From an uncultured Candidatus Saccharibacteria bacterium (GTDB lineage Bacteria; Patescibacteriota; Saccharimonadia; Saccharimonadales; Saccharimonadaceae), in NCBI GenBank assembly GCA_964536785.1, contig CAZHYM010000002.1, positions 1 to 51,149 of the forward strand: a stretch of 51,149 nucleotides of DNA. The letters are read 5' to 3'. Within the stretch, counting starts at the first letter, position 1. The number at the start of each line of letters is the position of its first letter. Positions 2,231-50,115 of the stretch are shown piece after piece. The notes beneath the pieces are model-generated. The model was given only the letters and a program-made list of their open reading frames with translations. It searched no databases and was not told where the DNA came from. A program made the translations under genes and the position numbers.

Positions 2231-2650
2231 ATGAATGTAAGATATATTATTCATGATCAGACCTTTAAAAAATTTTTAGTAGGTTTGGTCGTATTGGTGG
2301 GGTTGACTGGATTGGGAATTTATTCAGCAAAGAATATTTTGCCAAGTGTAAACGATAAAATTGCAAAAACTAATGACGTTGAAACTGGTAAAACAGATAT
2401 CGAAAAAACTTTGACCAAGCCACCGGTTGATTCTCTAGTAGAGAGCGAAGACGATTATGATCAAAATTCGACTAAAACGAATCAATCTCAAGCCGACGAT
2501 AGCTCAAGCAAGCAGCAAGAGACTGAACAACTAAAAAGTAGCGACTCTTTGCCAACTACTGGCAACAACGGCGTTCTAAATCAGGCAGTTGCCTTAGGAA
2601 TAATTACATTTAGTTTTGCTCACATATTTCAAATCAGAAATAAATTTTAA
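2231..2650 (+). CDS. Small LPXTG cell-wall-anchored surface protein, acidic/Ser-Gln-rich
   Basis: N-terminal signal/anchor FLVGLVVLVGLTGLGIY. C-terminal LPTTG (nt 2549-2563) is followed by a hydrophobic segment and the basic tail IRNKF. GAGGA SD precedes the ATG. Confidence 0.75.
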   Translation: MNVRYIIHDQTFKKFLVGLVVLVGLTGLGIYSAKNILPSVNDKIAKTNDVETGKTDIEKTLTKPPVDSLVESEDDYDQNSTKTNQSQADDSSSKQQETEQLKSSDSLPTTGNNGVLNQAVALGIITFSFAHIFQIRNKF

Positions 2651-7559: not shown

Positions 7560-9482
7560 TTACAAGAGGTTTATTGGGTCTATATCGTATTGCCAGTTTG
7601 TGGTGGGTAGGATATCTATGATTCTCTCCAACTCGCTACGGTTCTTAGACTTAATTATTAATTGCCAACTTATTTTTCCGCCCGCTTTTTCGTAGAAGCT
7701 TGGAGCCGGTCCAGCGATATCAAGTTTAGGAAAATTTGTCTTAATCATTCTCGCTAATTCATTTGCATGTTTGAGCACTGTGGTTTCTGTTTTGTATGAA
7801 ACTTTTAATTTGAGCATAAAACAGAAGGGCGGATAGTTTAGTTGTTTGCGTCTTTTTATTTCATAGTCAAAGAAACTATCGAAATCTTGTTTTATCCCAT
7901 ACTTAATGCTTGGATGGTCGGGGTGATAGGTTTGGACAATGACGTTTGTTTTATTCAGATTACGTCCAACCCGGCCGATTACCTGAGATATAAGTTGAAA
8001 TGTTTTTTCATCCGAACTGTAATCTGGCAAAAATAGACCATTATCGGCTTGTATAATCCCTACAACACTTAAGCTAGGAATATTTAGCCCTTTAGCGATT
8101 ATCTGTGTACCGATCACGATGTCTATCTTATTGTTTATAATGTCCTCGTAGAGTGAACCTAACGTTTCGTCTGAATCTGTATCGAACCTCTTAATCAAAG
8201 CTGATTTAAAGATCTTGCGCAGCTCAGATTCAACCAGCTTGGTGCCGATGCCTTTGTGGCTAATGTTTGCTGATTTACATTCTGGGCATTTGGTTGGAAC
8301 TGGTGAATGCTTACCGCAACTGTGGCAAATCATTGAATATTTATCAGAGTGAAGAGACATAGGAATTAGACAGTTGTCACAAGGCATAGACCAACCACAA
8401 TCATCGCAGGTAGTTATTTTTGCGCTTCCGCGCCTATTATGAAAGATTAATACCTGTTCTTTCCGCGCAAGTGCCGACGCGATTGATTCTAGTAACTGAT
8501 TAGACAAAAAATAGTGTTTGCTAAAATTAATTTTTTTAGACATGTCGATTAGTTTAACAATAGGCTTTGTGACTTCTTGGGCGGGAGAGAGAAGCTTGAT
8601 TATTGAACTACTTTTTTGTTCAGCAATCCAGTAGTCAGCTATAGTTGGCGTGGCACTTCCAATTATAAGTTTGGCTTTAGAATATTCCGAAATCTTACTG
8701 GCTAATCTGACGGCATAATATTTTGGATTCTTATCTTGTTTTAAGCTAGATTCATGAAACTCATCGATAACTATTAAGCCGACGTTTTTTAAGGGGGCAA
8801 ATAAAGCTGATCTTGCCCCTATGACTACTAGAGGCTTTTTGCTAGTTAAACATTTCTCCCAATTTAAGTGTTTTTTAGCTTCAGTCAAGCCTGAGTGCAA
8901 ACTTATTACTTCATCAAAGTAGCTCTCTACTTGTTTGGTCAGTTGAGTAGTTAGCGAAATTTCTGGGACGATAAAAATAACTGACTTGCCAGATGCAATT
9001 ACTTTTTTCGCTACCTCTAAATAGACAGTAGTTTTACCAGATCCAGTTATGCCGTGGACTAAAAAGGTTGTTTTGTCGGAGTTGGATATATGGGATATTG
9101 CGTTAGACTGCTCTAGAGTTGGCTGGAGGTTATTTATTTTACTGTTTTTTGAGTTATGTATTGGCTTTCGTCTTGACTTGGTCAGTCCAGTCGGAAGGAC
9201 TGTCTGGATAACTAAGCCAAGAGGCGTTTTGTAATAATCTTTTAGCCATAAGGCTACCTGTAACAAATACTTAGGCAACACGTAATTATTTAATACGTTT
9301 TTTATTGGTTTAGTATCAAACTCAGGTTTAGCAACTTCATTGTAAATAACCCCAATTAAACTTTTTTTGCCGAGTTCAATCATAACAATCTGGCCGATTT
9401 TAAGTTTCAATCTAGACTCATAAGTAAAAAAGTCTTGCCCTTTGCGGACGGTCTGGTTTGGCGCGACCAAATAATAGTGCAT
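7560..9482 (-). CDS. priA: Primosomal protein N' (replication restart helicase PriA)
   Basis: Walker A GITGSGKT, the DEFH box, and the Cys-rich zinc module CDDCG...CDNC...CHSCG...CPEC. Confidence 0.9.
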   Translation of the reverse strand: MHYYLVAPNQTVRKGQDFFTYESRLKLKIGQIVMIELGKKSLIGVIYNEVAKPEFDTKPIKNVLNNYVLPKYLLQVALWLKDYYKTPLGLVIQTVLPTGLTKSRRKPIHNSKNSKINNLQPTLEQSNAISHISNSDKTTFLVHGITGSGKTTVYLEVAKKVIASGKSVIFIVPEISLTTQLTKQVESYFDEVISLHSGLTEAKKHLNWEKCLTSKKPLVVIGARSALFAPLKNVGLIVIDEFHESSLKQDKNPKYYAVRLASKISEYSKAKLIIGSATPTIADYWIAEQKSSSIIKLLSPAQEVTKPIVKLIDMSKKINFSKHYFLSNQLLESIASALARKEQVLIFHNRRGSAKITTCDDCGWSMPCDNCLIPMSLHSDKYSMICHSCGKHSPVPTKCPECKSANISHKGIGTKLVESELRKIFKSALIKRFDTDSDETLGSLYEDIINNKIDIVIGTQIIAKGLNIPSLSVVGIIQADNGLFLPDYSSDEKTFQLISQVIGRVGRNLNKTNVIVQTYHPDHPSIKYGIKQDFDSFFDYEIKRRKQLNYPPFCFMLKLKVSYKTETTVLKHANELARMIKTNFPKLDIAGPAPSFYEKAGGKISWQLIIKSKNRSELERIIDILPTTNWQYDIDPINLL

Positions 9483-9489
9483 ACTTTAC

Positions 9490-9505
9490 ATTATACTGCT
9501 AAAAT
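9490..9505. promoter_or_regulatory. Back-to-back -10 elements in the 29-bp priA / 9512 divergent spacer
   Basis: On the minus strand, TATAAT (9490-9495) lies 7 nt from priA ATG 9482. On the plus strand, TAAAAT (9500-9505) lies 6 nt from ATG 9512. Neither gene has an SD. Confidence 0.5.
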
Positions 9506-9511
9506 AAGCAT

Positions 9512-10168
9512 ATGTATTTTGAGAGTCGATACGAGGCGGGTGAACAATTGGCTGAAGTGTTATTTGAGCATTATCGTTATGAGGATTGTGCTGTGGTTGC
9601 GTTGTCAGATGGGGGTGTCCTAGTGGGCGAACCTATTGCTCGAAAACTACATTCTTTGCTAATGATGCTAGTTACAGAAACCATCGAAATCCCGGGAGAG
9701 AGGCTCAATTTCGGGAGCGTTTCTCAAAACGGCAATTTTACATACGACAGCAACCTCTCTAGCTTTGAAATAGATGAGTACACGAACGAATTTAGCGGTT
9801 ATTTACAAGAAGAAAAGCGTAAAGCTTTTCAAAAAATAAATAGAATTGTCGGCGATGGGGGCACGATGGACATCAACCTACTAGTTAATCGAAATATAAT
9901 TTTAGTTTCTGATGGCTTTGACAGGAACGTATCGCTAGAAGCGGCGTTGGATTTTATAAAGCCTGCTAAAATTAAGAAAATTATTTTTGCAACACCCGTA
10001 GCGAGCGTTGATGTTGTTAACCGGTTGCACATATTGGTCGATGAAATGCATATCTTAGACGTTAAGCCTAATTACATGGGGACTGACCATTACTACGATG
10101 ATAATCAAATTCCATCTCATGAAGCAACAATTGAGAAAATAAACCAAAACGTAATAAATTGGCAGTGA
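9512..10168 (+). CDS. Phosphoribosyltransferase-like protein (COG1926-type), degenerate PRPP loop
   Basis: N-terminus YFESRYEAGEQLAEVL...VVALSDGGVLVGEPIA is typical of 'putative phosphoribosyl transferase' proteins. The expected acidic PRPP motif reads IILVSDGFDRNVS. Confidence 0.5.
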   Translation: MYFESRYEAGEQLAEVLFEHYRYEDCAVVALSDGGVLVGEPIARKLHSLLMMLVTETIEIPGERLNFGSVSQNGNFTYDSNLSSFEIDEYTNEFSGYLQEEKRKAFQKINRIVGDGGTMDINLLVNRNIILVSDGFDRNVSLEAALDFIKPAKIKKIIFATPVASVDVVNRLHILVDEMHILDVKPNYMGTDHYYDDNQIPSHEATIEKINQNVINWQ

Positions 10169-10237
10169 TGCCCAATAAAATTGTTTGATAAAATGTTGTA
10201 AAATGTGTAAACTATAAGTAAAGAATATGAGAGATAA

Positions 10238-10528
10238 ATGCTAGACGTTTTTATTACATCAAGGGTGCGGCGTAAAATTGTCGTTGTCTATGCTAAATAT
10301 CCTGATTTTAAAACTCACGTACGTGGGTTGGCTAAGTTGATAAAAGAAGACCCAGGAAATATTCAGCGGGAACTTAAAAAACTTGAGCGGTCGGGCTTTT
10401 TGGTTAGCGAGAAAAAAGCGAATTCAAGAATTTATTCTGCTAATAAACAATTTCTTATATTTAAAGAGCTTCAAAGTATCGTCATCAAGACTCAACAGCA
10501 ATCAAGTAAGCGCAAGCGCTCCAACTAA
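10238..10528 (+). CDS. Winged-helix (ArsR/MarR-like) DNA-binding protein with basic tail
   Basis: HVRGLAKLIKEDPGNIQRELKKLERSGFLVSEK... fits a wHTH recognition helix plus wing. The C-terminus is SSKRKRSN. Confidence 0.5.
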   Translation: MLDVFITSRVRRKIVVVYAKYPDFKTHVRGLAKLIKEDPGNIQRELKKLERSGFLVSEKKANSRIYSANKQFLIFKELQSIVIKTQQQSSKRKRSN

Positions 10529-10530
10529 CT

Positions 10531-12177
10531 ATGGCTCAGTCAAAATTATTAAAAGCCTTATTAGCAAAAAGGGGAATCTTAGATAGTGAAATAAGTAGTT
10601 TTTTGAATCCTCGTTACGAAGTTGTTGAATCAAACGATCCATATCTACTTCCAGATATGCAAAAGGCGGTTGATAGGCTGGAGATTGCCTATCTAAACCA
10701 AGAACATATTTTAATTTTTGGCGACTATGACGTTGACGGCGTTACTTCTACTGCATTGCTGCTAGATGGTTTTAACAAATTAGGCTTTAAGAATATATCT
10801 TATCAATTGCCGAACCGTTTTAAACATGGTTATGGAATGAATGGATCAATCATCGAGTCAATTGCTCCACGACCTGATTTAATCGTCACTGTCGATTGCG
10901 GAAGCTTAAACCATTCTGAAGTCAAACTAGCTAGATCCCTAGATATAGATGTTATTATTACAGATCATCATAATGTTGCAGAAATTCAACCAGATGCTGT
11001 CGCTGTTATTAATCCAAAGCGTAAGGAGAATTTATATCCAAACCGGGATCTGGCAGGCGTGGGAGTTGCATTCAATTTAATACGAGCTTTAAATATGAGA
11101 CTTGGAACTATACCCTCTGGACAAGAAAAATGGCTACTTGATTTAGTGTCTTTTGGAACTATAGCCGATATGATGGATCTTAGGGGCGAGAACCGTGTTT
11201 TAACCCATTTTGGCTTGAAAGTATTGAATCAAACTAAAAGGCTAGGCCTAAGAGAGATGCTATTACAAGCTAAAATTGAACCGGGAACAGCTGACTCTTC
11301 GACTATTGGTTTTGTTTTAGGGCCAAGATTTAACGCGGCTGGGCGTTTAGAGAGTGCTGATTTGGCGCTAAATGTTTTAACTGCAAAAAATAGTATCGAG
11401 GCTAAAGACGCGGTTGATAGGCTTGAGTATTTGAATCAAAAGCGTCGAGCTATCCAGGACCGGATATTTGATGAAGCAAGTCAAAAAGCAGATGTCGAAC
11501 GGCAAAACGTTTTGGTATTGTCAAATAGAGATTGGCACGAAGGAGTTGTGGGCATAGTCGCTTCTAAGATTTTGGAAAAATACCACAGGCCAACTTTTAT
11601 TTTAGAGATAAATGGTGATATCGCTAAAGGCTCAGCTCGAAGCTCTGGTAATTTTTCGATTTATAAAGCAATCTCAGAATCTAAAGATCTTATTATTAGT
11701 GGCGGTGGCCACGATTTTGCTGGCGGTGTCAAAATTGAAACGACAAAGATAAACGAATTTAAACAACGTTTGAATAGCTATTATGATAGCCTGGAGATAA
11801 CGGACGATGCAAAAAATTTTATTGCCGAGCCTGATCTTGTACTTGATGATTTTAGCGAGTTAACGCTTGATTTCTATAATGAATTAGTGAAAATGGAACC
11901 TTTTGGCACTGGCAATCCGGAGCCTGTTTTTCAGGTGTCTAGAGTCACTATTGATAAAATCTGGCATTTGGGCAAAGATTTGCAACATTTGAAACTAAAA
12001 GTGCTAGATTCTGACCGTCGCGTTATGACGTTCTTACTTTTTAGTGATGCAAAAAGTTATTCGTTGAAAACTGGAGATAAAATTTCCATTGTATTCAATC
12101 TGGTGCTTAATTCTTGGCAGGGTAAGAAGGATTTGGAAGGAAAGATAATATCAATTAGTGGCGCTAGTGATGATTAA
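10531..12177 (+). CDS. recJ: Single-stranded-DNA-specific exonuclease RecJ
   Basis: DHH family motifs FGDYDVDGVTS, VDCGS, ITDHH and GGGHDFAGG (DHHA1). Confidence 0.9.
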   Translation: MAQSKLLKALLAKRGILDSEISSFLNPRYEVVESNDPYLLPDMQKAVDRLEIAYLNQEHILIFGDYDVDGVTSTALLLDGFNKLGFKNISYQLPNRFKHGYGMNGSIIESIAPRPDLIVTVDCGSLNHSEVKLARSLDIDVIITDHHNVAEIQPDAVAVINPKRKENLYPNRDLAGVGVAFNLIRALNMRLGTIPSGQEKWLLDLVSFGTIADMMDLRGENRVLTHFGLKVLNQTKRLGLREMLLQAKIEPGTADSSTIGFVLGPRFNAAGRLESADLALNVLTAKNSIEAKDAVDRLEYLNQKRRAIQDRIFDEASQKADVERQNVLVLSNRDWHEGVVGIVASKILEKYHRPTFILEINGDIAKGSARSSGNFSIYKAISESKDLIISGGGHDFAGGVKIETTKINEFKQRLNSYYDSLEITDDAKNFIAEPDLVLDDFSELTLDFYNELVKMEPFGTGNPEPVFQVSRVTIDKIWHLGKDLQHLKLKVLDSDRRVMTFLLFSDAKSYSLKTGDKISIVFNLVLNSWQGKKDLEGKIISISGASDD

Positions 12178-12186
12178 TAAATATAG

Positions 12187-12215
12187 TTGTTAAATTTTAC
12201 TTCATCTGTTAAAAT
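12187..12215 (+). promoter_or_regulatory. rpsU promoter TTGTTA-17-TAAAAT, 8 nt from the ATG
   Basis: TTGTTA at 12187-12192 and TAAAAT at 12210-12215. The ATG is at 12224. No purine-rich SD lies in between. Confidence 0.6.
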
Positions 12216-12223
12216 TTTATATT

Positions 12224-12439
12224 ATGGTACAAGTAACAAGAAAAGATGAGAAAGAGGCTAACGAAAATTTAATTCGTCGTTTCAATCGAAAGGTTCTACA
12301 AAGTGGAGTTTTGTCGACTAAAAAGGAAACGTTGAGATTTGAAAAGCCAATTTCCAAGAACGATAGGCGTAAAAAAGCTATAGTCTCAAAAGAACGCCGA
12401 GCTGAAAAATTAGCTAAAATCAAGATGGGACTTAGGTAA
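12224..12439 (+). CDS. rpsU: 30S ribosomal protein S21
   Basis: Small basic protein ...EANENLIRRFNRKVLQSGVL...RFEKPISKNDRRKKA, typical of S21. Confidence 0.85.
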   Translation: MVQVTRKDEKEANENLIRRFNRKVLQSGVLSTKKETLRFEKPISKNDRRKKAIVSKERRAEKLAKIKMGLR

Positions 12440-12901
12440 GTGTCGCTTAAAAAGCGCATTACTGACGACGCGATTGCCGCTTTAAAAAGCGGTGATCGTT
12501 TAGTTAGCGAAACACTGCAGTGCCTAAAATCAGTAATTTTGAATCAGGAAATTTCTTTGGGCAAGCGAGATGTCGGCTTAGCCGATGATGAGGTTGAGAA
12601 AATTGTTGCTCAAGAAGTTAAAAAACGGAAAGAGGCTAGCGACTTATACTTGAAAGCAAAGCGACCAGAATTATCTGGCAAAGAATTATCAGAGTCCCTT
12701 GTTTTAGAGAAATATTTACCAAAGCAACTAAGCGAATCAGACATAGAGGCGCTTATTAATCAAATTATAAAATTAGAAAAGATAGAACTCACTACTGCTA
12801 ACACGGGACGTATAATCGGTGCAGTGAAAAAGCATGCGGGTAATTCAGCCGAAGGATCGATAATCTCAAAAATAGTGTCTAATAAAATTAATCAAAATTA
12901 G
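12440..12901 (+). CDS. yqeY: GatB/YqeY domain protein
   Basis: AALKSGD...LKSVILNQEI...VAQEVKKRKEASDLY...LEKYLPKQLS...GRIIGAVKK matches the YqeY pattern. The rpsU-yqeY adjacency is conserved in Gram-positives. GTG start immediately follows the rpsU stop. Confidence 0.8.
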   Translation: MSLKKRITDDAIAALKSGDRLVSETLQCLKSVILNQEISLGKRDVGLADDEVEKIVAQEVKKRKEASDLYLKAKRPELSGKELSESLVLEKYLPKQLSESDIEALINQIIKLEKIELTTANTGRIIGAVKKHAGNSAEGSIISKIVSNKINQN

Positions 12902-16681: not shown

Positions 16682-16948
16682 ATGCGAGTTTTGGTAGTTT
16701 ACAAAAAAGAATCTGATCATGCCAGGGAAGTGTTTGACTATTTACGAGACTTCAAAATTAGAACCGGCGAAGAGGTTGAAGAGATTGATCCAGAAACCCG
16801 TGAAGGAGAAGGGTTCTGTATGACCTATGGCATAGTCGAGTATCCAACTATCGCTGCGATTGATGATTCGGGTAGGCTACAACAGATGTGGCGAGGAAGA
16901 CCTCTGCCACAAATTAGCCAAGTAGCCTTTTATTTGCAGAGCATATAG
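16682..16948 (+). CDS. Small thioredoxin-fold-like protein without CxxC, translationally coupled to ftsZ
   Basis: The ATG lies 2 nt after the ftsZ stop. The pattern RVLVVY...HAREVFDYL...GIVEYPTIAAIDDSGRL resembles a Trx beta-alpha-beta fold with a cis-Pro (YPT). The only Cys (in GEGFCMTYG) is not in a CxxC context; the position corresponding to the Trx active site reads KKESDH. Confidence 0.35.
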   Translation: MRVLVVYKKESDHAREVFDYLRDFKIRTGEEVEEIDPETREGEGFCMTYGIVEYPTIAAIDDSGRLQQMWRGRPLPQISQVAFYLQSI

Positions 16949-17025: not shown

Positions 17026-17214
17026 ATGAGCGAAAAAATAAGAGATTATCTAACTCTTGAAGAAGAAGACATAAGACTTAAGGGTCTTGATTTTGCTAAA
17101 TTCCAAGAAGACAAGCAGGAGCGTGATGAAAACATTGAACTTGATGCTAAAACACTAGCTTTATGGGGTGGAATTGCAATCGAAAATTCAGGATTAGTGG
17201 AGCTAGATTTCTAA
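17026..17214 (+). CDS. Small acidic hypothetical protein (62 aa)
   Basis: Driven by P2, with AAGGA upstream. No recognisable motif and no terminator before the adhesin gene. Confidence 0.45.
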   Translation: MSEKIRDYLTLEEEDIRLKGLDFAKFQEDKQERDENIELDAKTLALWGGIAIENSGLVELDF

Positions 17215-17271: not shown

Positions 17272-19158
17272 ATGAAAAAAATCTTTAAACGAGTTGCCCT
17301 AGCAGCAGTGGTTGTCATGTTAGGTTTATTCGTTTTTGATGGTAATGCCTTAGCAACTAGCGAGGTGAGCGTCAAAATGGAACCGGGAACAACACTTCAT
17401 TATCTAACAACCGCGAGCGGCAAAAATCTACTCTACTCAGTGAAATCTGATGGGCAAGGTAATTTTTATTATTGTCTAGAACCTTCGCTGAAAGGGCCAG
17501 GTTGGCCAGAAGTAGGCACATATCAATCCTTCCCAGCAGGACAACCAAATTTAACTGCACTAGAAAATAGGATTTTGGCTCTTGGCTATCCAAACCAGAG
17601 CATACCAGGATTTGAAGGAAGCCGAAATCAATCGTATTATGTAACGCAGGCTGCAATGTACGCTGCATCGAGCAGGGCTTCAACGATTTATGACATCCCA
17701 AATCTACGAACCGCCAGTGGCACAGAGTTGCAATATAAAATTTTAACTGCCGTAAAAGACTTATACAATCGAGCTCAAAATTCAGTAAATACTTCAAACA
17801 ATAGTATTCGTCTAGAAGGCCCAGATTCAGCTAAGCTCGTCGGATCAAATTATGTTTCTGGTCCTTACTATGTAAAAACCGTTAATTCAACGCAGTTTAA
17901 CTTAAAACTATCCGTTGTAGGTGCAAATAGTGCGTCGATTCAAGATGCGAACGGAAACATAATAAGTTCAGTAACAAAATCAACTACTCCCATTTATGTT
18001 AAATACCCAGTTTCCACTAACTCAAATACTGGTAAGATCACTCTAAGAGCCAGCGGAGTTAACACGTATAAAATTGGTCTTTTCTATGCGTCAAGAGTTG
18101 AAGGATATCAGAATCAATCGAGTTATTCTAACTATGTAGAAAATGTTGAATTATCGGCTTCATCTAATTGGGTAAGGACAAGCTCTGTTGTTGAGATAAC
18201 AAAGACCGATGCAACAACTGGTGCACCACTTAGCGGAGCAAGAATTTCAATTTACAAAGACGGAGTAAATTCAGCTGTGTATGAAGGCATTTCTAACGCA
18301 AAAGGTCAGATCAGCGTTACCTTGGGGCTAGGGACTTATACATACAGGGAAGTGACTGCGCCAAAAGGTTATTATCTAGTAGAGAGTGTTGGAGCGTTTG
18401 AGATAAAAGCAGGAGGCGAGCCAATCAAATTAACTATAAAGAACACTAAAATTCCGATTGGATCTGTTGAAATTTTGAAAGTTGATTCAAGCAATAATAA
18501 TCCGCTAGCTGGAGCTAGAATAGCGATTTATGATGAATACATGACTAAAAAACTTAGCGAAGGAGTGACCGGAAGTGATGGCATATTGAAAGTTGAATCT
18601 CTAGAAGCCGGAAAGTACATGTTCAGAGAGTTGGTGGCTCCAAACGGCTATAAGGCTGCAACGGTTTCCGGACTGTTTGAAATTAAAACCGACAAGGAGT
18701 TAGTCAGAATCACATTAAAAAATGATAAACTGGTTGCGCCTAAAGCTCCTACTGGTAAGGTTGAGATATCAAAAACTGATCTGGTGACTAGTGAGCCAAT
18801 CGCGGGAGCAAAAATTGAAATTTTCGACCGATTGGGATCTAAGATCTATGAAGATATATCTGACGAAAAAGGTAAAATATATGCTGAGTTGCCATACGGT
18901 AAATATACTTTCAAAGAAACCGTTGCGCCAGAAGGCTATATCTTAAACACAGTAGAGGGAGAGTTTGAAATAGTCGATTCAAACTCTGTAGTTAAGGCAG
19001 AGCTTAAAAATGAAAAGATGCCAGCGTCCGTAGATATGCCTGCCGAGATTCCTAAAACAGGACCTGTCGAAACTGCGATCAGTGTCATTGCAGTTAGCGC
19101 GATGTCACTATCGGCGGTATACTGGTACAAATCTCAACAAGCACTGCGTCGACTATAA
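17272..19158 (+). CDS. Sortase-anchored surface adhesin: thioester (TQXA) domain + 3 CnaB/SpaA-like repeats + IPKTG sorting signal
   Basis: Signal peptide KRVALAAVVVMLGLFVF..ALA. FYYCLEP (Cys68, nt 17473-17475), RILALGYPNQ and YYVTQAAMY (Gln126, nt 17647-17649) match the Cys...GYP...TQxA layout of thioester domains. Three repeats of about 93 aa follow. C-terminal IPKTG (19048-19062) is followed by a TM segment and the basic tail KSQQALRRL. Confidence 0.8.
   Translation: MKKIFKRVALAAVVVMLGLFVFDGNALATSEVSVKMEPGTTLHYLTTASGKNLLYSVKSDGQGNFYYCLEPSLKGPGWPEVGTYQSFPAGQPNLTALENRILALGYPNQSIPGFEGSRNQSYYVTQAAMYAASSRASTIYDIPNLRTASGTELQYKILTAVKDLYNRAQNSVNTSNNSIRLEGPDSAKLVGSNYVSGPYYVKTVNSTQFNLKLSVVGANSASIQDANGNIISSVTKSTTPIYVKYPVSTNSNTGKITLRASGVNTYKIGLFYASRVEGYQNQSSYSNYVENVELSASSNWVRTSSVVEITKTDATTGAPLSGARISIYKDGVNSAVYEGISNAKGQISVTLGLGTYTYREVTAPKGYYLVESVGAFEIKAGGEPIKLTIKNTKIPIGSVEILKVDSSNNNPLAGARIAIYDEYMTKKLSEGVTGSDGILKVESLEAGKYMFRELVAPNGYKAATVSGLFEIKTDKELVRITLKNDKLVAPKAPTGKVEISKTDLVTSEPIAGAKIEIFDRLGSKIYEDISDEKGKIYAELPYGKYTFKETVAPEGYILNTVEGEFEIVDSNSVVKAELKNEKMPASVDMPAEIPKTGPVETAISVIAVSAMSLSAVYWYKSQQALRRL
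18181..19017 (+). repeat. Three tandem coding repeats (~280 nt each) encoding CnaB/SpaA prealbumin-like domains
   Basis: VEITKTDATTGAPLSGARISIY...YTYREVTAPKGY...IKNTK; VEILKVDSSNNNPLAGARIAIY...YMFRELVAPNGY...LKNDK; VEISKTDLVTSEPIAGAKIEIF...YTFKETVAPEGY...LKNEK. The repeat is at protein level, and the DNA copies have diverged. Confidence 0.8.
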
Positions 19159-36427: not shown

Positions 36428-36487
36428 CACGACGAATTTTATTAGTGTTAATTTTCTGGTATGATTAGAAAGATAAGAGGAGACAAC

Positions 36488-37693
36488 ATGAAGCAAACTT
36501 ATATTAAATCGGCGCTTATCATAGCGCTAATCACGGCCGTTCTACCAGCGAGTGGAGTGATAGCTCAGGAAAAAAGTACAGACCTCTCGGCATCCTCCGA
36601 ATCGGTTAAAATTTACGATAAAGAAATCGATGGTGATTTATTTTGCTATGGTTCAAAAATCGAAATTAACGCTCCGGTAAATGGAGATGTAATTTGTGTA
36701 GCGTCAGAGAGCCTGACTATAAATGCTAAAGTAAACGGAGATCTACGCGTTGCCTCTCCTTCGGTAATTTTAGGCGCTTCCAGTGAAATAGGACTAAATG
36801 CCTCAATCTTAGCTCAGAATCTAGAATCTAAATCAGGCTCGAAAATTGGCAGAGACTTGATGGCGTATGCCAGCGACGTTAGCCTTATTTCTCAAATAGG
36901 CAGAGACTCATCTCTGGCAGGGGTAAATGTCTACCTTGGAGGAAGTTACGGTAGAAACGTTAAAGTTCGTGCCGAAAATTTTACCATACCAATTGACGGT
37001 AAAATTCTAGGAGATTTAGATTACTCTGCTAAAACTTCTGACATGAATAGTGGTTCAATCGAAGGTAAGATGACGTCTGTTCCTTTTACAACCGATGGTT
37101 CTATGAGCATGGGTGGGAAAACAGGGTTTGACATCTTTGGGTTTATTTACTCTTTGGGCCTACTGGCATTAGGTCTGGTATTTATTGCTCTAAGAAAAAA
37201 ATATCTGCTGGAAGCAACAGACAAAATCGATCCACTTTACGTTTTTTCAACAATTGGCTTAGGCTTTTTAGTTGCTTTTACGATTCCAATTATCGCCATT
37301 ATTTTGTTGGTTTCGGGATTAGCTACCACTATTGGGATAGCCGTGTTATTAGTTTGGGCTTTGATGCTCGTATTAGCGATGCCGACGTTTGCTTTTTATC
37401 TTGCTAGGCACTCCATTAGAATGATCAATAAGGCCGAGGCTAAACCTGCCGTCGCTATGATTGTTGGCACGATTTTTGTGATTTTTGCAGGGTTTGTACC
37501 TGGGCTAAGCATTATCACAAAAGGTTTTGGCTATTTTATGGGCCTAGGACTGTTGTTTAGACAGTTTTTTAGAAAAGAAACTCAGGTTTCTTTACCTAAT
37601 GAAATAGAGCATGAAAGAACCATAGCCAGCGGGAAAAATATCGCTCAAAAATTAGAGCAAGCAGAAGTTGAAAATGACGAAGGTGGTAAATAG
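36488..37693 (+). CDS. Exported bactofilin-like (polymer-forming, beta-helix repeat) domain fused to a polytopic membrane domain
   Basis: AGAGGAG SD before ATG 36488. Signal peptide SALIIALITAVLPASGVIAQ. Repeats INAPVNGDVICVA..LTINAKVNGDLRVA..VILGASSEIG...GRDL...GRDS...GRNV. About 5 TM segments follow, then an acidic tail. Confidence 0.45.
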   Translation: MKQTYIKSALIIALITAVLPASGVIAQEKSTDLSASSESVKIYDKEIDGDLFCYGSKIEINAPVNGDVICVASESLTINAKVNGDLRVASPSVILGASSEIGLNASILAQNLESKSGSKIGRDLMAYASDVSLISQIGRDSSLAGVNVYLGGSYGRNVKVRAENFTIPIDGKILGDLDYSAKTSDMNSGSIEGKMTSVPFTTDGSMSMGGKTGFDIFGFIYSLGLLALGLVFIALRKKYLLEATDKIDPLYVFSTIGLGFLVAFTIPIIAIILLVSGLATTIGIAVLLVWALMLVLAMPTFAFYLARHSIRMINKAEAKPAVAMIVGTIFVIFAGFVPGLSIITKGFGYFMGLGLLFRQFFRKETQVSLPNEIEHERTIASGKNIAQKLEQAEVENDEGGK

Positions 37694-45907: not shown

Positions 45908-46606
45908 ATGATTTTATTGGATAGAGTAACTAAAACTTACGATCGGGCAGATAAACCTTCGACGGACAGAGTTAGTTTGCATATTAAGCCAAAAGAATTC
46001 GTCATATTAATTGGACCGTCGGGTTCAGGTAAATCGACCTTGTTGAAGTTACTCACAAGGGAAGAGAAGCCAGATTCAGGCAAGATCGTAGTTGGGGGCA
46101 TTGATTACGATAATTTGAGTGAGAAACAGATTCCGCTACTGAGAAGGAAGATTGGCGTGGTGTTTCAGGATTTTAAATTGTTACCACGTCGGACGGTATT
46201 TGAAAACATAGCTTTTGCTTTAGAAATTGCTGGCCTTAGTAACCGAGAAATTAAGAATACTGTTCCAAAGGTCATCGATCTAGTAGGCTTGACCGGGAGA
46301 GAGAAAAATTTTCCGCACGAACTATCTGGTGGAGAAAGACAGCGTGTAGCTATAGCCCGGGCTATCGTTAGGCAACCGAAGATTTTGATTGCAGACGAGC
46401 CAACCGGTAATCTCGATCCCAAACATTCATGGGATATCGTGAAGCTACTTGAAAAGATTAATGATTACGGGACGACAGTTTTATTGACGACGCATAATGT
46501 AGATATAGTTAATCGATTAAAGCGGCGAGTGATTGCAATCGACAACGGGAGAATCGTAAGCGATCAAGCAGAGGGGTCTTATCATGGCGATATTCAGGCG
46601 AAATAA
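45908..46606 (+). CDS. ftsE: Cell division ABC transporter ATP-binding protein FtsE
   Basis: Walker A GPSGSGKST, signature LSGGERQRVAIARA and Walker B ILIADEPTGNLD. It is followed by ftsX. Confidence 0.9.
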   Translation: MILLDRVTKTYDRADKPSTDRVSLHIKPKEFVILIGPSGSGKSTLLKLLTREEKPDSGKIVVGGIDYDNLSEKQIPLLRRKIGVVFQDFKLLPRRTVFENIAFALEIAGLSNREIKNTVPKVIDLVGLTGREKNFPHELSGGERQRVAIARAIVRQPKILIADEPTGNLDPKHSWDIVKLLEKINDYGTTVLLTTHNVDIVNRLKRRVIAIDNGRIVSDQAEGSYHGDIQAK

Positions 46607-47573
46607 AGTTGTTTTAAGAAATAACACCAGCGCTAAGCGAAGGTTTATAAGTCTAGGGCGAATTATTCGCTATGGTTTTGATAATTTCATTCGTAATTCT
46701 TGGCTTTCTTTAGCTTCCACTGTGATAATGACTATAACTTTAATTATTATATTCTTTTCTGTTGTGGCAAATGTTGTGCTTAACCAAACAGTTGAACAAA
46801 TCCGTGACAAAGTTGATATGTCTATCTATGTCGTGAACACCATCGACGACAAATCGGTAGACCAAATCAAAAAGGATCTATCGAAAATTGGTAGCGTCGT
46901 TGAAGTTAGGTATAAATCAGCTTCAGAGGCTCGAGAAGAATTAGCACGGAAAAACAGTGGTAGCGATGAAGTCTTAGAAGCTATCAACACGGCAATAAAT
47001 ATGCTTCCAGGAGTATTTAATATTAAAATAGAGGACATCAATGATCCATCAGAGCTTGAAAAGTTTGTCGTATCTAACCAAAATATTAAAAAATTTATAG
47101 ATCCCAAAAATCCACCATCATTTGCATCTGAACGCCGAGAAGCCATCAATAACATAGCTTCTAAGGCCATATTTTTTGAAAGGTTTGGAATTATTTTAGT
47201 CGGGATTTTCATCCTTATCGCTATGTTGGTAATTTTTAATACGATTAGGATGGCTATATTTAATCGAAAAGATGAGATTTACATGATGCGACTTATAGGA
47301 GCTAATTCTAGTTTTATCCGTGGGCCATTCATTATTGAAGCAATTTTAAATGGAGTTATAGCAGCTTGTGCGGCGATGGGTGTTTCGTATGCGATTATGC
47401 AGTTGAGCCAGGCAAAAATTATGGAGTCCGGGATTAGCATGGAAACAACAATAGATTTTATTCGAAATCAGTGGTATTTGGCCTTGTTAATCTTGATTGG
47501 GCTGGGTTGCGTTATAGGCATAATTTCATCATTACTTGCTACTCGTAAATACTTACGTCAGCGGGTTGATTAG
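46584..47573 (+). CDS. ftsX: Cell division permease-like protein FtsX
   Basis: Four-TM topology with a large first extracytoplasmic loop, and the C-terminal FtsX domain (RKDEIYMMRLIGA). It overlaps ftsE by 23 nt. Confidence 0.88.
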   Translation: MAIFRRNKVVLRNNTSAKRRFISLGRIIRYGFDNFIRNSWLSLASTVIMTITLIIIFFSVVANVVLNQTVEQIRDKVDMSIYVVNTIDDKSVDQIKKDLSKIGSVVEVRYKSASEAREELARKNSGSDEVLEAINTAINMLPGVFNIKIEDINDPSELEKFVVSNQNIKKFIDPKNPPSFASERREAINNIASKAIFFERFGIILVGIFILIAMLVIFNTIRMAIFNRKDEIYMMRLIGANSSFIRGPFIIEAILNGVIAACAAMGVSYAIMQLSQAKIMESGISMETTIDFIRNQWYLALLILIGLGCVIGIISSLLATRKYLRQRVD

Positions 47574-47586
47574 AAGTGCTTACGGC

Positions 47587-47616
47587 TTGACAAAACCATC
47601 TAGCTTGTGGTAAAAT
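47587..47616 (+). promoter_or_regulatory. Promoter TTGACA-18-TGgTAAAAT for the CHAP hydrolase gene
   Basis: TTGACA at 47587-47592 and TAAAAT at 47611-47616 preceded by TGG. Confidence 0.6.
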
Positions 47617-47685
47617 TATATAGAGTCTAAATTAAAATAAAAATCCTGTGACTACCATTAAACAAGAAAGCGAGATAGAACGATT

Positions 47686-48834
47686 ATGAAGAAGCGCCCT
47701 ATTTCAGTATTTTCAACAGCTGGCCTTAGCGAAGGCTTAAAGCGCGCTTGTTTAATTTCAATCGCGGTTTTGTCGATTGGTTCGGCTATGCCAAGCTATT
47801 TTAGGGCTTCTGCCGATCAATACGATGAGCAGATTAAGGCTTTGGAGTCTCAAAATAGTCAGTACAATCAAGAAGCTCAGTCTTTGCGATTAAAGGCCAA
47901 CAGTCTTGCCGAAGAAGTAGCTATTTTAGAAGCCGAGAAAAATGCAATTCAAGATCAGATAAATAAGACAACTGAACGCATCAATGAACTTAAATCGAAG
48001 ATCGAAGAAACAATTATTAAAATTGAGGCAAACCGTATTGCGTTAGGCGAGGTCCTAGCGTCGATATATCTATCAGATCAGATATCTCCACTTGAAAGAT
48101 TAGCAAGCAGCAAGGATATTACTACGTATATCGATGAGGAAGCTGAGCGCAATAGTTTGCAAAATAGTTTAACTGATAAAGTTAAAGAAATTGATCTATT
48201 TAAAAAAGAATTAGAATCTCAAAAGCTTGAGGTAGAGGCTACTCTCAAGACTCAGGAAGAACAACGTCAAATCTTGGCTCAAAAAGAGGCTGAAAAGCAG
48301 TCGGTTTTGAACCAGACGAGGGGAGATGAGGCTGCTTACAAGGCTTTAGCAAACGAAAACAATACTCGAATTTCCCAGTTGCGAGCCGAACAAGCTGAGG
48401 CAATCCGCCGAGCTATGGGCAACACTTGGGGTTCCGTACCAGCTGGTATTCCAGGAGGTGGCGGTTACCCTGGAGTATGGGCTAATGCTCCACTTGACGC
48501 TTACGTCGATACCTGGGGACTTTATACTCGTGAGTGCGTAAGCTACACTGCGTGGAAAGTATGGAGTACTGGGCGATTTGTCCCGCATTTTGGCGGTAGA
48601 GGTAACGCTAACCAGTGGCCTAGCACTACTGCAGCCTACGGCATCCCAAATGGCTCGACTCCTAAAGTAGGCTCCGTGGCTGTTTGGTACGTGGGATATT
48701 ATGGGCACGTCATGTACGTCGAAAAAGTCAATGGAGATGGGACGATTGATGTTAGCGATTACAACTTAGGTTGGGACGGGCTTTATCGTTACTACACTCG
48801 CTCGGCTAGTGGCTTAACTTACATATATTTTTAA
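47686..48834 (+). CDS. Secreted coiled-coil + CHAP-domain peptidoglycan hydrolase (PcsB-like)
   Basis: Signal/anchor CLISIAVLSIGSAMP. About 190 aa of heptad-rich coiled coil follow. C-terminal CHAP domain with the Cys box YTRECVSYTAWKVW and the His box YGHVMYVEKV. Confidence 0.8.
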   Translation: MKKRPISVFSTAGLSEGLKRACLISIAVLSIGSAMPSYFRASADQYDEQIKALESQNSQYNQEAQSLRLKANSLAEEVAILEAEKNAIQDQINKTTERINELKSKIEETIIKIEANRIALGEVLASIYLSDQISPLERLASSKDITTYIDEEAERNSLQNSLTDKVKEIDLFKKELESQKLEVEATLKTQEEQRQILAQKEAEKQSVLNQTRGDEAAYKALANENNTRISQLRAEQAEAIRRAMGNTWGSVPAGIPGGGGYPGVWANAPLDAYVDTWGLYTRECVSYTAWKVWSTGRFVPHFGGRGNANQWPSTTAAYGIPNGSTPKVGSVAVWYVGYYGHVMYVEKVNGDGTIDVSDYNLGWDGLYRYYTRSASGLTYIYF

Positions 48835-48891: not shown

Positions 48892-50115
48892 ATGGTTATG
48901 ATAGATGGGGAGAATTTTGTGGGAGATAAAGTAGATAAAAAAATAAATATTTTTGTAGCAGTTTTTTTAGCATTTGCGATTGGTTTTCTTGTAGGCAATC
49001 GAAGTGATGATTTGATCGCCAGGTATGGTGAAGTAATAGGCGTTAAGAGCTTTGGGTCAGCCCAAAATTGGCGCAGCCTTGACGAAATTTATCGAGTTAT
49101 CAAGCAAGATTATGATGGTGAAATTGATGAAAAAGAAATTTTAGAGGGCGCTAGCCGGGGAATGGTTTCGGCTTTGGGGGATGAGCATACTAATTATCTT
49201 TCAGATAGAGAAACAAAAACTTTCAACGAGCAGTTGTCTGGTGAAATTGGCGGAGGAATTGGGGCAGAAATTGGTATGCGAGAAGGTTATCCAACGATAA
49301 TTAATCCACTTATGAATAACCCTGCACAGAAAGCGGGGATTCTGCCAAGGGATGTGATTTTGAAAGTTAATGATGAGGATATATCCGGGCAGGCTCTCGA
49401 ACTAGTAATAGCTAAAATTAGAGGCGAAGTTGGGACGGATGTAAAATTAACCATCGCTAGGGAAGGAGATACTGCCCCTAGAGACATTACGGTAACTAGG
49501 GCTATAGTTGACAATCCGAGCGTAACCTATGAGATAAAAAATAATATTGGGATTTTGTATATCACAAGGTTTGACAATAAGTCTTATAATTTGGCTTCCA
49601 AAGCAGTCTATGAAATGAAGCAAGCTAAAGTCAGAGGCTTGGTAGTTGATCTGCGTAATAATACGGGTGGATATCTCTCGTCAGCCCAGGATTTAGCAGG
49701 TCTTTGGCTAGATAAGCAGGTGGTCGTTATCGAAAAAAAGCAGGGCAAGGTGGTTGAAGAGCTTATGACGTCTGCTGGTCGAACTGAACTTGCAAATTTT
49801 CCAACAATCGTTCTGATTAATGAAAACAGCGCCAGCGCTAGTGAAATTTTAGCAGGTGCGTTGAAAGACTATAATCAAGCTACGATAATCGGCGAAAAGA
49901 GTTATGGCAAGGGAAGTGTTCAACAATTAATTGCTCTTCCAGGGAACGGAACTCTAAAATTAACAGTTGCGCATTGGTTTACTCCAAAGGGCAAGACTAT
50001 AGACAAAGAAGGCATCAAGCCTAATATTGTAGTTGATCTAAAAGAGGACGGATTTAAGCCAGAAGTCGATCCTCAAATGGATCGGGCGATTGCTGAGCTT
50101 AACAAAACAATATAA
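48892..50115 (+). CDS. ctpA: S41 carboxy-terminal processing protease (CtpA-like) with PDZ domain
   Basis: PDZ segment PAQKAGILPRDVILKVND. S41 core DLRNNTGGYL, NENSASASEILAGALKD and GEKSYGKGSVQ. The likely true start is GTG 48919, 6 nt after GGGGAG, because TATAAT 48888-48893 overlaps the track ATG. Confidence 0.88.
   Translation: MVMIDGENFVGDKVDKKINIFVAVFLAFAIGFLVGNRSDDLIARYGEVIGVKSFGSAQNWRSLDEIYRVIKQDYDGEIDEKEILEGASRGMVSALGDEHTNYLSDRETKTFNEQLSGEIGGGIGAEIGMREGYPTIINPLMNNPAQKAGILPRDVILKVNDEDISGQALELVIAKIRGEVGTDVKLTIAREGDTAPRDITVTRAIVDNPSVTYEIKNNIGILYITRFDNKSYNLASKAVYEMKQAKVRGLVVDLRNNTGGYLSSAQDLAGLWLDKQVVVIEKKQGKVVEELMTSAGRTELANFPTIVLINENSASASEILAGALKDYNQATIIGEKSYGKGSVQQLIALPGNGTLKLTVAHWFTPKGKTIDKEGIKPNIVVDLKEDGFKPEVDPQMDRAIAELNKTI

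Follow-up and report, generated by a model that had tools for sequence, protein, structure and literature searches.

A candidate wall-anchored Class II thioester-domain adhesin encoded by an uncultured Saccharibacterium

How might a Saccharibacterium hold on to a surface once it has reached it? Type IV pili are described as making the first contact of Patescibacteria with their hosts, and the adhesins that form a lasting bond are described as unidentified (PMC11623550, PMC10633639). We analysed a stretch of 51,149 nucleotides (GenBank assembly GCA_964536785.1, contig CAZHYM010000002.1, forward strand), hereafter the window, from an uncultured Candidatus Saccharibacteria bacterium, and in it the gene at 17272..19158. 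A preliminary description of this DNA, made without database searches, had read the gene product as an adhesin with a thioester domain (TED), a stalk of CnaB/SpaA domains and a sortase signal. This identity is backed by Pfam, by alignment to the structure 6fwv and by Foldseek. The architecture is that of a "TIE" protein like BaTIE of Bacillus anthracis: a signal peptide, a Class II TED, three CnaB/SpaA isopeptide domains and a sortase sorting signal. Taking identity and chemistry together, we consider it probable that the window TIE protein is a wall-anchored Class II TED adhesin with a thioester between Cys68 and Gln280. Proteins of this type and their chemistry are already well understood; the phylum of occurrence is unreported. 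TEDs as a whole are highly abundant and varied (PMC9210967), and a full-text literature search returned no paper linking thioester domains to Saccharibacteria or Patescibacteria.

The gene and the parts of its product are listed here by nucleotide position in the window.

17272..19158, plus strand: complete coding sequence of the TIE protein, ATG start, 628 amino acids (aa) plus stop
17272..17355, plus strand: signal peptide, aa 1-28, predicted cleavage between ALA and TS (boundary at 17356), read by eye from the sequence
17356..18180, plus strand: Class II TED, aa 29-303, comprising head lobe, inserted beta-sandwich and return hairpin (Pfam, profile, Foldseek)
17473..17475, plus strand: Cys68, predicted thioester Cys in YCLE (motif [YFL]C-Phi-zeta), aligned with BaTIE Cys71
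17644..17661, plus strand: TQAAMY, a TQxx(Phi)W-like motif on helix alpha2 in which Tyr130 takes the Trp position (helix 118-133 in the AlphaFold2 (AF2) model)
17797..18027, plus strand: beta-sandwich insertion of about 77 residues, aa 176-252 (AF2 strands 178-246, pLDDT about 85-93)
18109..18111, plus strand: Gln280 (in EGYQN), predicted thioester Gln at a hairpin tip (strands 253-273 and 282-301), aligned with BaTIE Gln266
18181..18450, plus strand: stalk domain 1 (CnaB/SpaA), aa 304-393 (Pfam SpaA, BaTIE alignment)
18451..18732, plus strand: stalk domain 2, aa 394-487 (Pfam SpaA, BaTIE alignment)
18733..19023, plus strand: stalk domain 3, aa 488-584 (Pfam SpaA, BaTIE alignment)
19048..19155, plus strand: cell-wall sorting signal with IPKTG, a hydrophobic segment (aa 598-619) and the basic tail KSQQALRRL

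Architecture and class of the thioester domain

The open reading frame (ORF) and the four motifs singled out in the preliminary description lie exactly where it had placed them: FYYCLEP at aa 65-71, RILALGYPNQ at aa 100-109, YYVTQAAMY at aa 122-130 and IPKTG at aa 593-597 (nt 19048-19062). Cys68 (nt 17473-17475, TGT) is the sole cysteine among the 628 residues, and Gln126 is encoded by nt 17647-17649. The N-terminus (MKKIFKRVALAAVVVMLGLFVFDGNALA followed by TS) resembles, by eye, a Sec signal peptide with an AxA cleavage site, in keeping with the signal peptide reported earlier, and the AF2 model has a helix at aa 4-21 within this region. The gene is real and under purifying selection. Against an 85%-identical orthologue (P0002, locus L002) its dN/dS is about 0.07, a rough value at saturated dS. 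We looked for diversifying selection on the TED in the same comparison and found none; purifying selection is uniform (dN/dS 0.03-0.09, dS saturated). The TED head, 91% identical to that of P0002, is among the most conserved parts of the gene, and the third isopeptide domain is 93% identical.

The TED model of Pfam (PF08341) scores 27.8 bits on the full protein and 29.7 bits on the TED region, over a gathering cut-off of 22, and it matches six of six members of the Saccharibacterial family to which the protein belongs. Pfam SpaA matches in three copies (171.6 bits). The profile search proposed in the preliminary description thus came out for the Pfam TED and SpaA models and fell short for the NCBIfam TQXA model, which stays under its cut-off (scores below). 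Searched against the PDB with phmmer, the protein aligns to 6fwv_A in a single continuous alignment spanning aa 59-582 (E 4.7e-36), and a profile of the family TED aligns to 6fwv across the whole TED (E 3.6e-15). We also built a full-length AF2 model from an alignment of 24 full-length relatives (alignment A1; mean pLDDT 78). In Foldseek this model matches 6fwv over 563 columns (E 7.9e-46) and the Class II TED of EfmTIE86 (6fwy_C) with a TM-score of 0.70 and an rmsd of 4.4 A. A second model, of the TED only, was built from the shallow six-sequence family alignment and is poorer (pLDDT 71, hairpin tip <50); its only significant PDB matches are the Class II TEDs 6fwv and 6fwy. We take the TED-only model as support for the specificity of the fold match, not for geometry.

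Class II TEDs are recognized by an insertion of about 75 residues that forms a seven-stranded beta-sandwich between helix alpha3 and strands P/Q (PMC6194298), after which a hairpin goes back to the head lobe and forms a slipknot (Miller et al. 2018; PMC6194298). In the model, a helix carrying TQAAMY (118-133) and a second helix (152-169) are followed by the beta-sandwich and then by a long hairpin (253-273/282-301). As modelled, the domain has the topology diagnostic of Class II. Among the significant sequence or fold matches for the TED region there is no Class I TED structure. The comparators chosen earlier, Cpa and SfbI, belong to the other class, the window protein being Class II. The Class I TEDs of Streptococcus pyogenes (SfbI, FbaB, Cpa) share with it the [YFL]C-Phi-zeta motif (there YC-Phi-zeta), a motif of the TQxx(Phi)W type (with Tyr for Trp in the window protein), the fold of the head lobe and a sortase-type anchor, and the same chemistry is expected, in which an internal Cys-Gln thioester is attacked by an amine of the target. 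Unlike it, they have no inserted beta-sandwich of about 75 residues and possess an extra helix, alpha0. Cpa, moreover, is a pilus tip protein, whereas the window gene is not in a pilus locus.

The closest characterized relative in architecture is BaTIE (BasC/BA5258, full-length protein in 6FWV), in which a Class II TED precedes three CnaB isopeptide domains and the anchor motif is LPATG (PMC6194298). Domain order and number are identical in the two proteins, and the thioester Cys and Gln as well as three sets of Lys, Asn-or-Asp and Glu align residue for residue, at an overall identity of only about 24%. Five differences stand out: (i) the acceptor in BaTIE domain 2 is Asp464, whereas all three acceptors here are Asn; (ii) Tyr replaces the Trp of TQxx(Phi)W; (iii) the anchor motif is IPKTG instead of LPATG; (iv) an 8-residue linker precedes the motif where BaTIE has a disordered region of 38 residues; and (v) BaTIE comes from a member of the Bacillota and the present protein from a Saccharibacterium, of the candidate phyla radiation (CPR).

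Bond-forming residues of the head and the stalk

Which glutamine would pair with Cys68? The preliminary description proposed Gln126, that of the TQAAMY motif. In solved TEDs the Gln of this motif merely packs nearby: the Gln and Trp of TQxx(Phi)W are located on helix alpha2 next to the bond, whose formation does not require them. The Gln that does form it follows the Cys by about 170-205 residues and is found, in Class II, on the beta-hairpin that comes after the inserted beta-sandwich (PMC6194298). Confirmed pairs are Cys71 and Gln266 in BaTIE, Cys296 and Gln467 in SaTIE, and Cys88 and Gln292 in EfmTIE86 (PMC6194298); in TIEpLS20 the modelled pair is Cys68 and Gln256 (PMC8092201). In the family profile alignment, BaTIE Cys71 aligns with Cys68 and BaTIE Gln266 with Gln280, where the chain index of 6fwv is the residue number minus 31, such that Gln266 is index 235 ("EKVQN"). 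We therefore predict the thioester to be Cys68-Gln280, with Gln126 probably packing beside it, by analogy with solved TEDs, rather than forming it.

Conservation agrees with this assignment. Cys68 sits in Tyr67-Cys68-Leu69-Glu70, which matches the [YFL]C-Phi-zeta motif carried by TEDs on beta-strand C and lies on a modelled strand (65-68), and it is invariant in three alignments (A1, A2 and A3). All six members of the Saccharibacterial family alignment have Gln280, as do the four closest sequences, and the residue is at least 90% conserved in A1, whose 24 members are distant (about 25% identity). Across the Saccharibacterial family, whose members are only 27-34% identical within the TED, Cys68, Thr125, Gln126 and Gln280 are all invariant. 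So are Tyr279-Gln280-Asn281, while the adjoining Gln282 is not conserved. The residues that follow, Gln and Ser, are not hydrophobic, and the Gln-containing TED motif, described as weak by PMC6194298, is thus partly matched. The choice of partner matters in practice. With Gln280 as the bond partner, the distance measurement and the Q126A control suggested in the preliminary description aim at the wrong residue: a short distance between Cys68 and Gln126 is expected regardless and would not show a bond, Q126A is the wrong control, and mutants and distances chosen in this way would mislead.

Below the head, the three repeats with the pattern described earlier are present (aa 304-393, 394-487 and 488-584), each of about 90 aa and 40-44% identical to one another. 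For domain 1 we predict a bond between Lys311 (nt 18202-18204) and Asn391 (nt 18442-18444) with Glu360 (nt 18349-18351) as the catalytic residue; for domain 2, between Lys403 (nt 18478-18480) and Asn484 (nt 18721-18723) with Glu453 (nt 18628-18630); and for domain 3, between Lys501 (nt 18772-18774) and Asn580 (nt 19009-19011) with Glu549 (nt 18916-18918). Using the BaTIE residue numbers of PMC6194298, Lys311, Glu360 and Asn391 align with BaTIE Lys297, Glu343 and Asn373; Lys403 and Asn484 with Lys384 and Asp464; and Lys501, Glu549 and Asn580 with Lys475, Glu524 and Asn555. The suggestion that the ITKTD and IKNTK stretches hold the isopeptide positions is thereby upheld, since they correspond to crystallographic bond residues of BaTIE in all three domains. 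Lys311, Glu360 and Asn391 are invariant in A1, and the triads of domains 2 and 3 are invariant or nearly so. A TIE (thioester, isopeptide, ester domain) protein combines a TED with CnaB domains that carry a triad of Lys, Asn-or-Asp and Glu-or-Asp, and this combination is found here. One numbering point arose along the way. The catalytic residue of BaTIE domain 2 is given as Glu443 in PMC6194298 and PMC8092201, and a count along 6fwv gives 433, the Glu of the YKE motif aligned with Glu453; this may be a typographical error in the literature or a miscount, and the conclusion is unaffected.

The stalk also resembles CnaB2 of FbaB (SpyCatcher) and the CnaB domains of the pilins BcpA and GBS52, with matches at E 1e-5 to 1e-15 and the same triad of Lys, Glu and Asn-or-Asp. 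In these cases the similarity is confined to the stalk; the proteins either lack a TED or carry one of Class I, and their overall architectures are different. If the predicted Cys68-Gln280 thioester and the three Lys-Asn isopeptides form, the expected mass deficit of the protein is about 68 Da, at 17 Da for each of the four bonds.

A different kind of stalk repeat was seen in three orthologues, P0243 (aa ~500-662), P0244 (aa ~412-541) and P0241 (aa ~305-336). These are tandem repeats of about 33 aa, each flanked by two cysteines, with the consensus VCDL..K..TI.E..FD..KHSKNL.DC, and they are absent from the window TIE protein. Such Cys-bracketed repeats may form a disulfide-stapled stalk module.

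Several observations weigh against our identification of a wall-anchored, thioester-forming Class II adhesin. The NCBIfam model TIGR03934 (TQXA_dom) scores 15.1-16.6 bits, below its cut-off of 30.4; this model is short (42 positions, covering only the GYP...TQxA stretch) and matches four of the six family members weakly. In the window protein and in the 85%-identical orthologue, TQxx(Phi)W has Tyr at the position where orthologues P0241-P0245 keep Trp. The TED-only model matches the Class II TEDs only at TM-scores of 0.33-0.40, and both AF2 models have low confidence at the Gln280 hairpin tip and in the head loops. Formation of both kinds of cross-link is deduced from residue conservation. A scan for the TLxTC motif, together with Pfam scans of the ORFs not annotated by synteny, revealed no sortase in the 51-kb window, as the preliminary description had also remarked. 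Finally, the TED lineage is rare, and the word "thioester" is absent from the annotation tables of S. epibionticum (PMC10633639 supplement).

Some of these points would fit a structural or degenerate TED, in which the thioester stabilizes the fold or fails to form and the protein acts as a non-covalent adhesin or a surface spacer. The sub-threshold TQXA score, a Pfam TED score only modestly over threshold and the low model confidence at the active-site hairpin all favour such a protein. Yet Cys68 and Gln280 are invariant in a family that is only 27-34% identical in this domain and conserved in 24 distant relatives, Cys68 is the sole cysteine, and few parts of the gene are as strongly constrained as the TED head. 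We therefore regard a degenerate domain as unlikely and retain a thioester-forming Class II TED as the better account.

Sorting signal and the question of a pilus

The C-terminus has the three parts of an LPXTG-type signal, namely a pentapeptide, a hydrophobic segment and a positively charged tail. As reported earlier, IPKTG is followed by a membrane-spanning segment (22 hydrophobic residues, PVETAISVIAVSAMSLSAVYWY) and a basic tail, KSQQALRRL; position 1 of the motif is Ile, not Leu. In the orthologues the motif is LPKTG or LPHTG, and a "P.E...YW(Y/H)KS" tail comes after it. A tail of the same kind occurs on an unrelated protein of another Saccharibacterial locus (L021), a 456-aa CLIPPER/DUF11-like protein that ends in ELPSTGPAEIAISMIG...YWYKSQQ (ELPSTGPAEI...) and is 50% identical over 38 aa to the tail of the window TIE protein. 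Because of these LPKTG and LPHTG orthologues and the tail shared with an unrelated protein, IPKTG is best read as a one-residue variant of the general signal of the lineage, and the tail "LPxTGP.E...YWYKSQQ" suggests a lineage-specific sorting-signal signature.

The preliminary description had instead leaned towards IPKTG as the mark of a pilus-associated substrate. In its full form this would make the protein a pilus tip adhesin like S. pyogenes Cpa, the Thr of IPKTG being joined to a major pilin by a class C sortase. Some pilins do carry IPxTG-type motifs, such as IPQTG in RrgB and IPNTG in BcpB. SpaA/CnaB domains are common to pilins, the Foldseek and PDB matches include BcpA, GBS52 and RrgB, and the NCBIfam SpaH/EbpB pilin family gives a weak match, at 36.5 bits against a cut-off of 95. 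These pilin matches are, however, confined to the stalk domains, and the entire architecture fits BaTIE, a monomeric wall-anchored protein. The Leu-type motifs of the orthologues and the identical type of sorting tail on a non-pilin surface protein speak against a dedicated pilus signal. Genes of sortase-assembled pili are normally clustered, and the gene of a pilus subunit would be expected to have those of a major pilin and a class C sortase close by. Neither a pilin nor a sortase gene was found in the conserved neighbourhood of four syntenic relatives (described below) or in the 51-kb window. A pilus subunit is thus very unlikely, and a monomeric adhesin attached to the wall remains our preferred reading.

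Processing of IPKTG by a sortase is plausible. Sortase is encoded in more than half of CPR genomes (PMC6744442). The cultivated Saccharibacterium S. epibionticum ML1 has two, SEML1_0327 (essential or growth-defective in transposon sequencing (Tn-seq)) and the class E enzyme SEML1_0711, and it also has LPXTG-type proteins (PMC10633639 supplement). In the window, one "TLITC" string, in the gene at 1354-2229, was considered as a sortase and rejected, since it sits at the N-terminus of a ROK-family kinase. The gene next to it, overlooked in the preliminary description, encodes a second candidate substrate.

2231..2650, plus strand: candidate sortase substrate of 139 aa with LPTTG, a hydrophobic segment and a basic tail

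This protein has an N-terminal transmembrane or signal segment and an acidic low-complexity linker rich in Ser, Gln, Asp and Glu; a Pfam scan gave no match.

Lineage, candidate targets and neighbouring genes

The FtsZ encoded next to the TIE gene is 75-83% identical to proteins of Candidatus Saccharibacteria/Saccharimonadales on contigs of 0.8-1.0 Mb, and a 388-kb contig encodes an FtsZ that is 99% identical (P0121). The similarity to Saccharibacterial proteins supports the premise, made before the source of the DNA was known, of a reduced-genome and probably epibiotic organism. The gene order around the locus is priA ... recJ ... adk-map-ftsA-ftsZ-88-aa ORF-short ORF-TIE-(NTP transferase)-rplU-parA-parB-S26 signal peptidase-LCP. 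It is shared by four syntenic relatives, namely the 85%-identical orthologue P0002 and P0241-P0243, whose TEDs are 30-38% identical; the next relative, P0246, lies in a Bacilli context. This conserved order indicates that the TIE gene is vertically inherited in a small Saccharibacterial clade and does not sit on a mobile island.

This TED lineage is rare. Among 1.84 billion cluster representatives, HMMER run exhaustively with the TED region returned just 10 proteins (E <= 1e-3). In the GTDB species representatives, a profile of the four closest sequences found only loci of metagenome-assembled genomes (MAGs) of Bacilli/Firmicutes, at 24-35% identity, and no Saccharibacterium, and a scan of JGI metagenome contigs found no relative. 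The nearest non-Saccharibacterial TEDs are from gut and rumen Bacilli MAGs. For S. epibionticum, a study combining Tn-seq with structure-based annotation lists VCBS, dockerin and FnIII adhesin candidates and no thioester protein (PMC10633639). Given the rarity of the lineage and the missing thioester entry in S. epibionticum, the protein does not represent a general attachment mechanism of Saccharibacteria.

How the protein might work can be sketched from characterized TIE proteins, for which Sec export, sortase anchoring, the isopeptide stalk and the amine chemistry of a tip thioester are established (PMC6194298, PMC8092201). The protein would be exported by Sec, its signal peptide being cleaved after Ala28, and a sortase would cut IPKTG between Thr and Gly and link the product to peptidoglycan. 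The three CnaB-type domains would then form the rigid stalk, about 15-20 nm long, of a monomeric adhesin, locked by self-generated bonds between Lys311 and Asn391, Lys403 and Asn484, and Lys501 and Asn580, with Glu360, Glu453 and Glu549 as the catalysts. At the N-terminal tip of the stalk the Class II TED would be displayed, with an internal thioester of Cys68 and Gln280 beside which Gln126 and Tyr130 would pack. Upon recognition, an amine of the ligand would attack the thioester carbonyl, giving a stable intermolecular amide to Gln280 and freeing the Cys68 thiol, and the cell would thereby be covalently tethered to its ligand.

What that ligand is depends largely on analogy. The targets of Class II TEDs, that of BaTIE included, are mostly not identified (PMC6194298), and the ligand here could equally be an animal-host or matrix molecule. 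TIEpLS20 (p34, from the Bacillus subtilis plasmid pLS20) is the best functional analogy for an epibiont. Going by its published description, it too has a Class II TED with Cys68 in YC-Phi-zeta, three Ig-like stalk domains and a bond-forming Gln about 190-210 residues after the Cys (Gln256 there, Gln280 here). Gram-positive donor and recipient cells need it to form mating pairs, and the C68S exchange inactivates it (PMC8092201). TIEpLS20 is, on the other hand, plasmid-borne, encoded in a conjugation operon and sortase-independent, without a sorting signal (PMC8092201), whereas the window gene is chromosomal, stands in a housekeeping neighbourhood and encodes a canonical sorting signal.

For Saccharibacteria it has been proposed that, after contact by type IV pili, [quoted passage not shown] (PMC11623550). 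Because the pLS20 TED mediates contact between donor and recipient and because close-range adhesins are postulated for Saccharibacteria, we tentatively favour the surface of the bacterial host as the most likely ligand. More doubtful is the specific form of this reading, in which the TED would react with an amine on that surface (a protein lysine or a cell-wall amine) and lock the two cells together covalently after type IV pilus contact.

The same adhesin could instead react with an animal-host or environmental macromolecule (fibrinogen-like, mucin or biofilm matrix) and serve niche retention, not epibiosis. Those TED targets that have been characterized are proteins of the host: fibrinogen is bound by SfbI (PMC8092201) and also by Enterococcus faecalis Fss3, which is placed in a Class II TED cluster (PMC9210967). 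The gut and rumen origin of the nearest other TEDs points the same way, as do direct interactions of Saccharibacteria with epithelial cells (PMC13194787). Against this, cultivated Saccharibacteria are all obligate epibionts of bacteria (PMC11623550), which makes the bacterial host their most constantly contacted surface, and a Class II TED is already known to act in contact between Gram-positive cells; neither counterpoint is specific to the window TIE protein. We hold an animal or environmental target to be possible and rather doubtful, and continue with the bacterial host as the tentative choice. By analogy, a role of the window TIE protein as a covalent "molecular glue" is plausible.

A wall-anchored Class II TED adhesin offers a concrete, biochemically testable candidate for irreversible attachment, and it would extend TIE proteins, so far from Bacillota and Actinomycetota, to the CPR. 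If its target is an amine on the host surface, the protein would give bacterial episymbiosis its first described covalent tether between cells, and one of the postulated Saccharibacterial "close-proximity adhesins" would have been identified, at least in the clade of the window. The importance is limited by a rare lineage, absent from current model strains, and by an uncultivated organism.

The position of the gene between ftsZ and rplU is itself of interest. In L021, whose FtsZ is 78% identical, this slot (7780..11453) holds a 758-aa protein with a Pro-rich region and the 456-aa CLIPPER/DUF11-like protein mentioned above, which has an LPSTG anchor. In L022, WxL/LysM and RCC1-repeat proteins lie downstream of ftsZ (9362..12862). 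The differing slot proteins of L021 and L022 mark the ftsZ-rplU slot as a variable surface-protein locus. With differing sortase-anchored proteins across Saccharibacteria, it could be a locus that determines host range. The 758-aa protein of L021 was also considered as a diverged TIE protein and rejected for want of any similarity.

Two small ORFs separate ftsZ from the TIE gene.

16682..16948, plus strand: 88-aa ORF directly after ftsZ, in conserved context, no Pfam match
17026..17214, plus strand: acidic 62-aa ORF directly upstream of the TIE gene, position kept, sequence poorly conserved

An ORF of 85-88 aa after ftsZ (or nrdR) is also present in L003 (591-857), L005 (9382-9645), L021 (7201-7461), L022 (7659-7919) and L023 (7668-7925). 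It is conserved by sequence in the window, L003 and L005, and by size and position only in L021-L023. It has one conserved Cys and adjoins a VKOR gene in L022 and L023. The position of the second ORF is occupied by an ORF of 62-78 aa in all syntenic relatives, with sequences that can barely be aligned. Compared with the close orthologue, the 62-aa ORF is 63% identical with a dN/dS of 0.29, and its neighbours are 85-97% identical; it may be spurious, or it may encode a rapidly evolving partner of the adhesin. Scans for promoters and terminators near the TIE gene gave numbers at chance level (8 promoters against 8.1 expected, 2 terminators against 2.4 expected) and are uninformative on operon structure.

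Elsewhere in the window, 36461..37693 (plus strand) encodes a 410-aa protein with a weak, sub-threshold bactofilin match (20.9 bits against a cut-off of 27.9). At 45908..48834 (plus strand), FtsE (an ABC ATPase), FtsX with an extracellular domain and a coiled-coil CHAP-domain protein are encoded in a row, an arrangement like that of PcsB-type cell-division hydrolases, and they are followed by an S41/CtpB-like protease at 48892-50115.

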